Source: Escherichia coli (GTDB taxonomy: Bacteria; Pseudomonadota; Gammaproteobacteria; Enterobacterales; Enterobacteriaceae). Taken from it: DNA of 64,000 bases. Below are positions 51,395 through 56,635 of this stretch, piece by piece. The stretch lies in assembly GCF_003019035.1 (NCBI RefSeq), contig NZ_CP027447.1. The stretch is one strand, 5' to 3'. Both the position numbers and the translations under genes were made by a program. Position 1 is the first letter of the stretch. Every line of letters begins with the position of its first letter. Under the pieces are notes generated by a model that was not told where the DNA came from, ran no database searches, and saw only the letters and a program-made list of their open reading frames with translations.

Positions 51395-54300
51395 TTAAAG
51401 TGATTTACGGCAGGCGGTCAGTTGGGGGCTGGAATCAGCGTCGCTTCCGGTCATACCCGTTAGCATCTGCACATAGTAGTGCCGATTGTAATCATCAGAT
51501 TCACTTGTCCAGTAAGCACCTTGTGTAAATTGCGAATTACTGGAAAACGCTCCAACGTTCCCCCATTCACCATATAGCGATCCCTGCGTGCGTTGGTTTT
51601 CGCCAGACGTCAAATGTGTGATGGCAGGAAGATTATATCCATCATTTTTAGCATGACAGAGCGCATTGGCAGCTAGCCAGATATTGGTATGATTTCCATT
51701 ATTCACCCACCAGCCTTTCAGCTTAATTAAGGTCTGGTAGGTTGTACCTCCTTGTCGGGGAACAGCGCTTATTGTGACTGACGTTTGATCGCCGATATTT
51801 GCGAAAGAAACCTTACCTGAAGCATCGACCGACACCCAACTCTGTGAACTTGAAAACATATAATCATCAACGGTTTTACCCGCTTCAAAGTTATCATTGT
51901 TGAGTGTGTAATACGCTCCTGCAAAACCTTCGCTCGGGAATTTAGCCGTTGAGAAGGTATGGTTGTTTGCAGTGACATGACCGGACATTTCTTTTATCGA
52001 GCGGATGAGATTCAGCGATACGCTTAAGTTTGCCTGATGAACCCCGTTCAGCATGGGAATGAGGGTCGCTGTCCCCTCTTTTCCGCCAGTGACAGTCACG
52101 GTGTACTCGCCATAATTTCTCTGGCTGTAATCAATATCGCTCAACTTGAGAAAGTTCACAAAGGGGCCTGACTGGACAAATTCCAGATGATCAGACGTCA
52201 CTATCGGGTTACCGTACTTGTCTTGCAATGTTAGCGTAAGTTTTGCGCTCTGCTGGTAGTCAGCCTTCAGAGTGTCAACGTCGGATTTCAAAATTGACTT
52301 ACTTTCATCGGCCGTGCCGGCAACCAATGTAATGGTTGCGGATTGGTTGGCTGTACCAGGAACTTGCACATTGACCGTTAAGGTTTCTGCCAATGTACTG
52401 GTTATTGTCGCCGTGACTTGCCCGGACTGATCGGTACGCGTAGTTGGAATATTAACTACCGGGCTGCCTTTGGTGTCTAAGGCATAACTAACATCGACAC
52501 CTTCAACCGGGAATCCGTAATCATCTTCTACTCGTGAAGTGATGGTGCTGCTATCAACGCCGTCGGCGGTTATGGTGTCAGGGGAGGCCACGACGCTCAC
52601 AACATGTGCCGTTTTAGCATCTGCCTTAACCGCAACCGTTACCTGGCTCTGAACGGGAACATCTTTGCCCATTGTGGCCGTAACGGTATAGACATTCACT
52701 TTGTTACTGGTCAGCGTCACTTTGGCCTGACCAGACTGGTCAGTAAGGACTTCCCCTGTATTGCTTAGCGTTGCACCTTCAGGCGTTACGCTAAAGGTGA
52801 TAATTTGCCCAGGCATCAATTCATCCCGCGCATTTCTCGCCGTTGCGGTAAGCGTAATACCTTCACTGTTATGGACCGTGGTTTCTGGCTTCGATGATGT
52901 TAACTCGAGCTTGCCATTTGCCACATTCACGTCAACCTTACTACTACTGTTATTGTCCAGCGTTGCCGTCACCTGATAAACCCCAGGCTGGGTGCTGAGA
53001 AGGTTAACGTACGCGTAACCGTTATTATCGGTGTAAGCCGTATCGCCTATCGTAATGTTAGCTGTTGGCTGCGCACTTAATCTGACGCGTTGACCTGATA
53101 TTACATTGTTAAACGCGTCCTGGACGAGTATCCGTAGCGTGATGTTTTCGCCAACCGTTATCGTTTTTTCGGCTCCGGTTATACTTATTACCTTCGCCGA
53201 ACTTTCATCCGGGAGCACTGATAAACTAAACGTTTTATTATCGGAGGGCTGCGCTTTCCGGCTCACCACGACGTTATGTTGTCCGGCAATATTGCTGGTC
53301 ATTGTTACCGTCGCCTGACCCAGCGTATCGGTGGTGACTTCTGTTCCGCTTAGAGTGACATCGTTACTCTGGAAAGTGACCAGCTGGTCTTTAAGCGGAT
53401 TTTGGTAAGCGTCCAGGATCGTTGCAGTCAGGGTACTCCCCGTACTGTCACCCGCAACAATGGTATTTAATGAGGCAGTCAGCGGCTGGAGCTGCGCACT
53501 GTTTGTATCCCCAATAAAAGTGACTTGCTGATGAGCAACGGTGTTATTTCTGGTCAGCGTCGCCGTAACTGTAAACTCACCCGCTTTTGTGCCTCGCAAT
53601 GTAACCACGGCATCACCGTTTGCATCGGTGCGGGCGGTTTCACTACTTAGCGTGAAGTTCCCGGTCATGGAGGCTGGCAAGGTAAATTTCACATCCTCAT
53701 CCGGCAACGGGTGTCCATAAACATCTTTCACACTGGCTGTCAGGATAACGGTATTTGTATTGTTAGCGATCGCACTGCCCGACCCGGCATTTAAGGTCAT
53801 TACCGATTGTTCCCTGTTTGGGACCACGGTGATCGTGACCGACTGGTGAATATTTTTATCCGCCTCAAGCGAGGCATCGACGGAATAGCTACCAGCTTTT
53901 GAACTGGTCAGGTGCACTCGCACAATACCGGACTGGTCTGTTGTGGCGGTCGTGTTGTCCAGTTGCGAGCCACCAGGTGCCACAAAATTCACTTTCATAT
54001 CTTTTAACGGGTTGTTATGAAAGTCTGTGACGGTGGCGGTCAGAGTACTGCCCTGGCTGTTGCCAGCAATAATGGTATCTGGATCGGCAACCAGTTGTTT
54101 GAATTTTGGCGTACTCGAATCGCTAACGAATTTCGCAATTATCCGTTGTGAGAAACCATTTGGCAGCGTGGCACTAATCGTATTTTCTTCCGCAACCTGA
54201 CTTACCATGTTGATTGTGGCAACACCATATGCATCCGTATTTTGCTGCGGCGGTTCGACAAATTCAGCGCTTCCTTTTTCATTCTTAAAGGTGACCTGAT

Positions 54301-56635: not shown

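Follow-up and report, generated by a model that had tools for sequence, protein, structure and literature searches.

The window analysed here is a stretch of 64,000 nucleotides of Escherichia coli DNA (assembly GCF_003019035.1, contig NZ_CP027447.1), and the gene under study in it, iatD, occupies positions 51395-56635 on the minus strand. The list of open reading frames (ORFs) and the translation give one uninterrupted ORF that starts with ATG and encodes 1746 amino acids (aa) plus a stop; on the opposite strand of the same interval, the list contained no ORF of at least 80 aa. A ribosome-binding site (RBS), GGAAGG, lies 5 nt ahead of the start codon at 56641-56646. Convergent with iatD is kptA (50690-51274, plus strand), and upstream, co-directional and separated by 210 bp, is yjiJ (56846-58024, minus strand). 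An earlier note made from the letters alone had described a 1746-aa adhesin ORF here and named an interruption of the frame as evidence that would count against it. The ORF stands intact on the minus strand and is uninterrupted in this genome and in many other complete genomes.

Features of the locus, with the evidence for each, are as follows.

51395..56635, minus strand: iatD coding sequence (CDS; ORF list, translation, iatD annotation in strains LR-28 and SMS-3-5)
56501..56635, minus strand: predicted long Sec signal peptide, aa 1-45 (inspection of the translation)
56282..56434, minus strand: predicted periplasmic LysM domain, aa ~68-118 (partial Pfam match, phmmer, AlphaFold 2, Foldseek)
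55367..56194, minus strand: predicted inverse-autotransporter beta-barrel (translocator), aa 148-423 (Pfam IAT_beta PF11924)
52019..55345, minus strand: predicted extracellular stalk of about 11 immunoglobulin (Ig)-like domains, aa 431-1539 (Pfam, own hidden Markov model [HMM], alignments)
51398..52003, minus strand: predicted tip, an invasin-D4-like Ig domain (aa ~1547-1637) plus a C-type-lectin-like domain (aa ~1641-1745), with Cys1660/Cys1742 (Pfam, phmmer, AlphaFold 2, Foldseek)
51352..51379, minus strand: hairpin with a 12-bp stem, 16 nt past the iatD stop (RNA fold)
51302..51348, strand not assigned: palindrome resembling a repetitive extragenic palindromic (REP) element, between kptA and iatD (second hairpin of the same fold)
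56636..56845, minus strand: AT-rich yjiJ-iatD intergenic region, 210 bp, with the RBS GGAAGG at 56641-56646 (sequence)
51242..61511, strand not assigned: variable block of 10 additional kptA codons, iatD, divergent yjiJ/yjiK alleles and an EspX6-like gene (blastn against K-12)

Identity and distribution of the gene

The ORF is almost certainly an intact allele of iatD, which encodes a type Ve (inverse autotransporter) adhesin of E. coli. A CDS of the same 5241 bp is called by the Prokaryotic Genome Annotation Pipeline (PGAP) in SMS-3-5 and in LR-28; the latter was the top megablast match, at 99.7% nucleotide identity, and the PGAP label on the matches reads "iatD: inverse autotransporter IatD." NCBI and UniRef already contain the exact 1746-aa sequence under the name IatD, and it is present on 41 contigs. 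Compared with IatD of SMS-3-5, 1738 of the 1746 residues are identical (99.5%, eight substitutions), and window positions 9720-59631 are colinear with that genome for 49.9 kb at 99.3% identity. Near-identity, the exact deposit and this colinearity therefore mark a known gene, in a strain close to SMS-3-5 over 50 kb.

Position and sequence both place the protein in the IatD orthologue group, as it is nearly identical to named members and is encoded between kptA and yjiJ, an order common to LR-28, O157, Sakai and SMS-3-5. Nothing that we found contradicts the identification, which is already known rather than new: the gene is named, is annotated by PGAP and was the subject of a functional study in 2019. 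In that study, Goh et al. (mSphere) defined iatA to iatD in SMS-3-5, with iatD corresponding to EcSMS35_4876 (5241 bp), and reported that its chromosomal position is conserved (PMC6714894).

Among 5426 complete E. coli genomes, 638 (11.8%) carried iatD at a coverage of at least 80% by megablast, and the other ~1165 megablast records were cross-hits at 60-80% to the paralogue yeeJ, confined to nt 199-1994. Goh et al. reported a complete iatD in 6% of the 126 genomes that they surveyed and in 10% of ECOR (E. coli reference collection) strains (PMC6714894). A pattern scan of species-representative genomes with the C-terminal 597 aa of IatD found no relative, the exact 8-mer patterns that it used limiting its sensitivity, and thus gives weak evidence that iatD may be restricted to E. 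coli.

Predicted architecture of IatD

Residues 1-45 read as a long signal peptide. By eye, K23, R25 and R26 form the n-region, the 17 residues from L27 to A43 form the h-region, and an A-T-A/Q motif follows, where cleavage would be expected between A and Q. The motif LRRLTAG(I/V)CL..Q..FP..A.A is kept in an alignment of paralogue N termini.

We assign residues ~68-118 to a LysM domain with moderate confidence, mainly on modelled structure. The Pfam LysM family (PF01476) matched in part (E 0.049, model positions 9-29 of 43), and phmmer gave weak matches to the LysM proteins 4uz2 and LytE (E 0.008-0.05). An AlphaFold model of the N terminus, built from 21 homologous N-termini, has a beta-alpha-alpha-beta (E-H-H-E) arrangement at these residues, with a predicted local distance difference test score (pLDDT) of 71-80. 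When this model was compared with the PDB by Foldseek, ~46 of the top 50 matches were LysM domains, at a root-mean-square deviation (rmsd) of ~2 Å over ~50 residues and a probability of 1.00. The best structural match was the periplasmic LysM of intimin (2mpw), and 4uz2 superposed with an rmsd of 2.0 Å.

The barrel assignment is unambiguous at the level of sequence homology, with IAT_beta matching aa 148-423 at an E value of 7.7e-109, the match spanning positions 2-279 of the 279 in the model. Over aa 185-430, the barrels of known structure that matched were those of invasin (4e1t, E 9.7e-82) and intimin (4e1s, E 2.4e-67). As the barrel is N-terminal and the Ig array and tip follow it at aa 431-1746, the order of translocator and passenger is inverted. 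Together with the signal peptide seen by eye and the Big_1 passenger, these features are those of an inverse autotransporter of type Ve.

Nine Big_1/Invasin_D3 domains were significant in the passenger (E 1e-13 to 1e-19), and a self-built HMM placed the Big_1 boundaries at aa 540-629, 746-835, 847-935, 946-1038, 1052-1135, 1158-1238, 1244-1334, 1347-1436 and 1448-1539. Two further intervals are domain sized: aa 431-539, which is covered by an intimin model alignment reaching IatD aa 530-554, and aa 630-745, of which only the first half is covered, by an alignment to InvE. The stalk would thus comprise about 11 Ig-like domains, or about 12 in IatD when the Ig domain of the tip is included, a count that is approximate beyond the nine significant domains.

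At the C terminus, Pfam Invasin_D4 matched weakly (E 1.7e-5), and phmmer aligned the tip with domains D4-D5 of invasin (1cwv) at an E value of 2.6e-6 and 24% identity, placing Cys1660 opposite invasin Cys907. Homologues of the tip formed 279 clusters among 1.84 billion representative proteins, the nearest beyond IatD being 47% identical. An alignment and an AlphaFold model were made from 34 homologues drawn from these clusters, and the model reached a pLDDT of 95.9 and a predicted template modelling score (pTM) of 0.89. Foldseek matched it to invasin 1cwv (E 1.3e-12, TM-score 0.81, rmsd 2.6 Å) and to intimin 1f00 (E 1e-7, TM-score 0.67), and matched its C-terminal half to snake-venom C-type lectin-like proteins. 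Cys1660 and Cys1742 are each conserved in at least 90% of the 34 homologues; a disulfide between them would hold the tip, which we take to be the ligand-binding end. The same tip module was also seen in two metagenomic proteins (P0023/P0167; 2867 and 3122 aa), each of which gave eight separate matches to it; in these, the Ig plus lectin-like unit repeats internally, compared with a single C-terminal cap in IatD.

This architecture agrees with the one that the earlier note had drawn, namely a LysM-like N terminus, an intimin/invasin-type barrel, a long Ig-like array and a Cys-containing C-terminal tip. Detection of the barrel removes what the note had offered as a ground for rejection, the array and the tip are recovered with their conserved Cys pair and a C-type-lectin-like fold, and the LysM proposal is supported in fold by AlphaFold and Foldseek, with Pfam reaching only the E value given above.

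Length, setting and variation of the locus

The note had also expected the Ig array to vary in length and to be prone to assembly error, and this expectation failed. Its most extreme form, in which the length of the ORF is an artefact of collapsed or expanded Ig repeats, has only the general behavior of repeat-rich adhesins in its favor and can be given almost no probability. Tandem Repeats Finder reported no tandem repeat in iatD, a repeat finder returned two pairs of 20-25 nt at chance level, and blastn of the gene against itself gave the self-match alone. The nine Big_1 domains are pairwise only 14-43% identical in amino acid sequence (median, 24%), and without repeats in the DNA the artefact is therefore refuted. 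All sampled full-length genomic matches were 5241 or 5242 bp long, the 5241-bp length recurring in independent complete genomes that include the Sanger-era SMS-3-5, and Goh et al. likewise state that the repeat number of IatD does not vary (PMC6714894). iatD need not be treated as a repeat-collapse risk.

The difference from K-12 extends beyond the gene itself. In K-12 MG1655, kptA and yjiJ are neighbors, as the earlier note had stated; they converge and lie 12 bp apart. The further proposal of the note, that the adhesin gene was inserted between them, does not hold as a simple insertion, because a 10.3-kb block replaces 2.2 kb of K-12 (6553-8755 in the retrieved K-12 locus). By blastn, the window is 98.1% identical to K-12 from 47134 to 51241 (hypT to kptA), and homology ends precisely at the stop codon of K-12 kptA, the window kptA being 10 codons longer. 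Identity is 81% over yjiJ and yjiK (56868-58928), no K-12 match was found from 58929 to 61511, and identity returns to 96.7% from 61512 to 64000. YjiJ and YjiK are 90% and 83% identical to their K-12 counterparts in amino acid sequence, the alleles being ~82% identical at the nucleotide level. Window-type yjiJ is likewise ~82% identical to the genes of E. whittamii and Escherichia sp. E1V33, which are ~95% identical to each other and to that of K-12, so that the distance between the window and K-12 exceeds that between K-12 and E. whittamii (95%) for the same gene; the genes of Citrobacter and Salmonella are at ~70%. A pattern scan of species representatives with YjiJ found no window-type allele, the best match being 91% identical in amino acid sequence and K-12-like. 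The same block is present in SMS-3-5 and in O157 Sakai, where it has been described as S-loop288 and ECs_5290 as a 'putative invasin' (PMC2323221).

The block also encodes, at 59200-61173 on the minus strand and within DNA of low guanine-plus-cytosine (GC) content (0.33-0.40), a 657-aa pentapeptide-repeat protein. It shares 77% amino acid identity, interrupted by indels, with the type III secretion system effector-like EspX6 of Sakai (735 aa) and does not have the Sakai KD-repeat insert. Separately, Citrobacter sp. Cu233 encodes a 1042-aa inverse autotransporter (12120-15248 of the retrieved locus) that is 45% identical to IatD aa 38-737. We rejected synteny with iatD in that case, the adjoining upstream YjiJ-like major facilitator superfamily protein being 60% identical and lying outside the yjiH-iadA context; its proximity is probably a coincidence.

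Recent arrival of iatD as a discrete mobile element between kptA and yjiJ is improbable, although K-12, in which the gap measures 12 bp, does not have the gene, and only ~12% of complete genomes carry it. The flanks of the block contain direct and inverted repeats at chance level only, on which ground this explanation was rejected; the block holds no integrase, transposase or other mobility gene; and the GC content of iatD (~0.45-0.55) is near that of the flanking genes. The neighboring yjiJ and yjiK differ as well, being replaced by alleles of ~82% nucleotide identity; what differs is therefore an alternative haplotype of 10.3 kb whose breakpoints coincide with gene ends. We read the block, from these comparisons, as an old or imported haplotype rather than a simple insertion, and in scoring iatD as present or absent the whole 10-kb block is better taken as the unit.

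Within this haplotype, the O157 copies of iatD are 5242 bp long and are flagged 'frameshifted' by PGAP. The extra base falls at CDS nt 177 (codon 59), within a run of eight C (C8). A run of seven (C7) and an intact gene are found in O55:H7 CB9615 and in O157 ATCC 43889, and the window has no homopolymer at the corresponding site (~56455-56465, CCGTCCCC). An exact C8 61-mer was present in 285 complete genomes, among them the Sanger-sequenced Sakai, and all 23 of the 23 sampled rows were O157:H7 or unserotyped strains of enterohemorrhagic E. coli (EHEC) type; the exact C7 60-mer was present in 21 complete genomes, comprising O55:H7 strains and some O157. With C8 in 285 of the 638 carriers, ~45% of carrier genomes thus hold a pseudogene, and because the shift from C7 to C8 breaks the frame at codon 59, the annotated O157 ORF has no signal peptide. 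The pattern looks phylogenetic and is consistent with a single event, and slippage-based switching between C7 and C8 is possible. This frameshift does not appear in the text of the 2019 IatD paper (PMC6714894). A broader proposal, in which the block is an old haplotype or came from an Escherichia-like lineage not yet sampled, the adhesin and the effector-like gene form one colonization module and the newly arisen C7/C8 run of O55/O157 serves as an on/off switch, is speculative and on balance unlikely.

Transcription of iatD may run on from yjiJ or start at a promoter of its own. GC content is 0.43 over 56500-56999, the yjiJ-iatD gap contained no terminator-like site, and a promoter scan upstream of iatD picked out hexamers at 56831-56802, in a region where sites were no more numerous than in shuffled sequences. 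At the other end of the gene, both the hairpin and the REP-like palindrome lie in the 120-bp convergent gap between kptA and iatD, and the fold of 51275-51400 (minus strand) has an energy of -36.6 kcal/mol (z -4.6 against shuffles). The hairpin is likely a terminator between the two convergent genes, a function that we infer because the U-tract is short. The palindrome appears to resemble the REP consensus (…CTGATAAGCGCAGCGGATCAGGCA…). A search of the whole window against Rfam gave no match.

Other parts of the window also differ among strains. The invertible element fimS lies at 12024-12338, bounded by left and right inverted repeats (IRL TTGGGGCCA, IRR TGGCCCCAA), in the orientation opposite to that of LR-28 and the same as that of SMS-3-5. 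Its promoter, TTGAGA-17-TATGAT, with hexamers presumably those of the fimS promoter, is directed toward fimE from the minus strand, and we take the switch to be in phase OFF. Flanked by iraD and hypT, a GimA-type island of ~20 kb spans ~26870-47100 and is absent from K-12; its genes include ptsP-like, dhaKL, glycerol dehydrogenase, gcl-hyi, dhaR, ibeA and nhaC, and such islands are known in ibeA-positive lineages. An IS1 interrupts the dhaK/dhaL/ptsP end of the island in LR-28, the window copy being intact there. At its left end, too, the window departs from LR-28, encoding a phosphorothioated-DNA-binding HNH restriction endonuclease (4875-5804, minus strand; NF045808, 437 bits). Beside it are an ORF of 682 aa (2204-4252, plus strand), for which Pfam, NCBIfam and PADLOC gave no match, and one of 215 aa (626-1273, minus strand) that matched GNAT weakly; together the three may be a small defense islet.

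Function, rival readings and known systems

By analogy with intimin and invasin, to which IatD is homologous, the long Sec signal peptide would carry the protein into the periplasm, where the LysM domain would contact peptidoglycan. A 12-stranded barrel (aa ~148-430) would insert in the outer membrane, and the C-terminal passenger would be exported through it, displaying about 11 diverged Ig-like domains that end in the Ig plus lectin-like tip with its predicted Cys1660-Cys1742 disulfide. When SMS-3-5 IatD was expressed from a plasmid in K-12, it was exposed at the surface by immunofluorescence and promoted biofilm, and it conferred neither autoaggregation nor binding to extracellular matrix (ECM) (PMC6714894). 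The suggestion in the earlier note that such an adhesin affects biofilm is thereby documented for a protein 99.5% identical to the one encoded here (PMC6714894).

Several points weigh against the picture of an adhesin secreted and deployed in this way. At its N terminus, the Pfam score for LysM is under threshold, and at its tip the position of invasin Asp911, a residue important for integrin binding, is taken by Asn1664, with Asp1665 adjoining it; an invasin-like ligand is therefore not to be assumed. Nearly half of the carriers, those of the O157:H7 lineage, have a frameshifted iatD, from which it can be argued that at least this lineage can do without the gene. The functional evidence comes solely from isopropyl-β-D-thiogalactopyranoside (IPTG)-driven over-expression in K-12, and the study did not show native expression of iatD (PMC6714894).

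A rival reading is that the gene is cryptic or silenced, for example by H-NS as other E. coli autotransporter adhesins are, intact yet unexpressed under ordinary conditions and on its way to decay, with biofilm formation an artefact of over-expression. The codon-59 frameshift in 285 complete genomes and the AT-rich upstream region with its promoter signal no better than chance fit it, as do the reliance on an IPTG-driven plasmid and the failure to detect the related iatB protein in its native strain, even under over-expression of LeuO (PMC6714894). However, a 5.2-kb ORF has stayed intact at more than 97% identity in most non-O157 carriers (~350 genomes), iatD is intact in O55:H7 ancestors, and the tip has kept its Cys pair and its core residues, a pattern that fits purifying selection; we regard the cryptic state as possible but doubtful. 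A different function is conceivable too, although we hold it only tentatively: IatD may be a host-receptor-specific adhesin or invasin whose lectin-like tip binds a host protein or glycan, biofilm not being its main role. The precedents are invasin, which binds beta1 integrins, and intimin, whose partner is Tir; the fold of the IatD tip is that of invasin D4-D5 and intimin D2-D3. An EspX6-like effector-type gene is linked in the same block, and iatD is found in lineages related to EHEC and enteropathogenic E. coli (EPEC), such as O55:H7 and O145:H28. Against this, IatD has no Asp opposite invasin Asp911 in the alignment, most O157:H7 genomes carry a frameshifted iatD, and no binding to ECM proteins was reported (PMC6714894). 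In addition, the closest tip outside IatD shares only 47% identity with it, so that ligand specificity is not transferable.

Among known systems, invasin and intimin are those to which IatD is likened, by analogy, in secretion and overall design, although its ligand cannot be inferred from either. The invasin of Yersinia pseudotuberculosis (1cwv, 4e1t) has a homologous barrel and shares the tip fold and Cys pair, but it has four Ig-like domains compared with about 12 in IatD, its tip is 24% identical, and its Asp911 aligns with Asn. Intimin of EPEC and EHEC (1f00, 4e1s, 2mpw) has the same plan of LysM, barrel, Ig domains and lectin-like tip, yet iatD, unlike the intimin gene, lies outside the locus of enterocyte effacement (LEE) and has no Tir partner encoded nearby. 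Identity as intimin was rejected, as IatD scored 367 bits with the NCBIfam intimin model (NF033627), whose cut-off is 1400. No model in NCBIfam is specific to IatD, and all of its inverse autotransporter models scored under cut-off, including that for IatC (NF040978; 1123.9 bits against 2400).

YeeJ and IatC, both large inverse autotransporters of E. coli, are built on the same plan as IatD, with a LysM domain, a barrel, a Big_1 array and a lectin-like cap. Their N-terminal 800 aa are clearly related to those of IatD, and yeeJ DNA is ~77% identical over nt 199-1994, but they differ from IatD in the length and sequence of the passenger and in chromosomal locus; judged by the NCBIfam cut-off, IatD is a paralogue and not IatC. 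ECs_5290 of O157:H7 Sakai, in contrast, is an orthologue (~97.5% nucleotide identity) located in the same block, alongside yjiJ, yjiK and espX6, and differs by the C8 frameshift. IatD of SMS-3-5 (EcSMS35_4876) shares with the gene described here the same 5241 bp, the same locus and the same 50-kb neighborhood.

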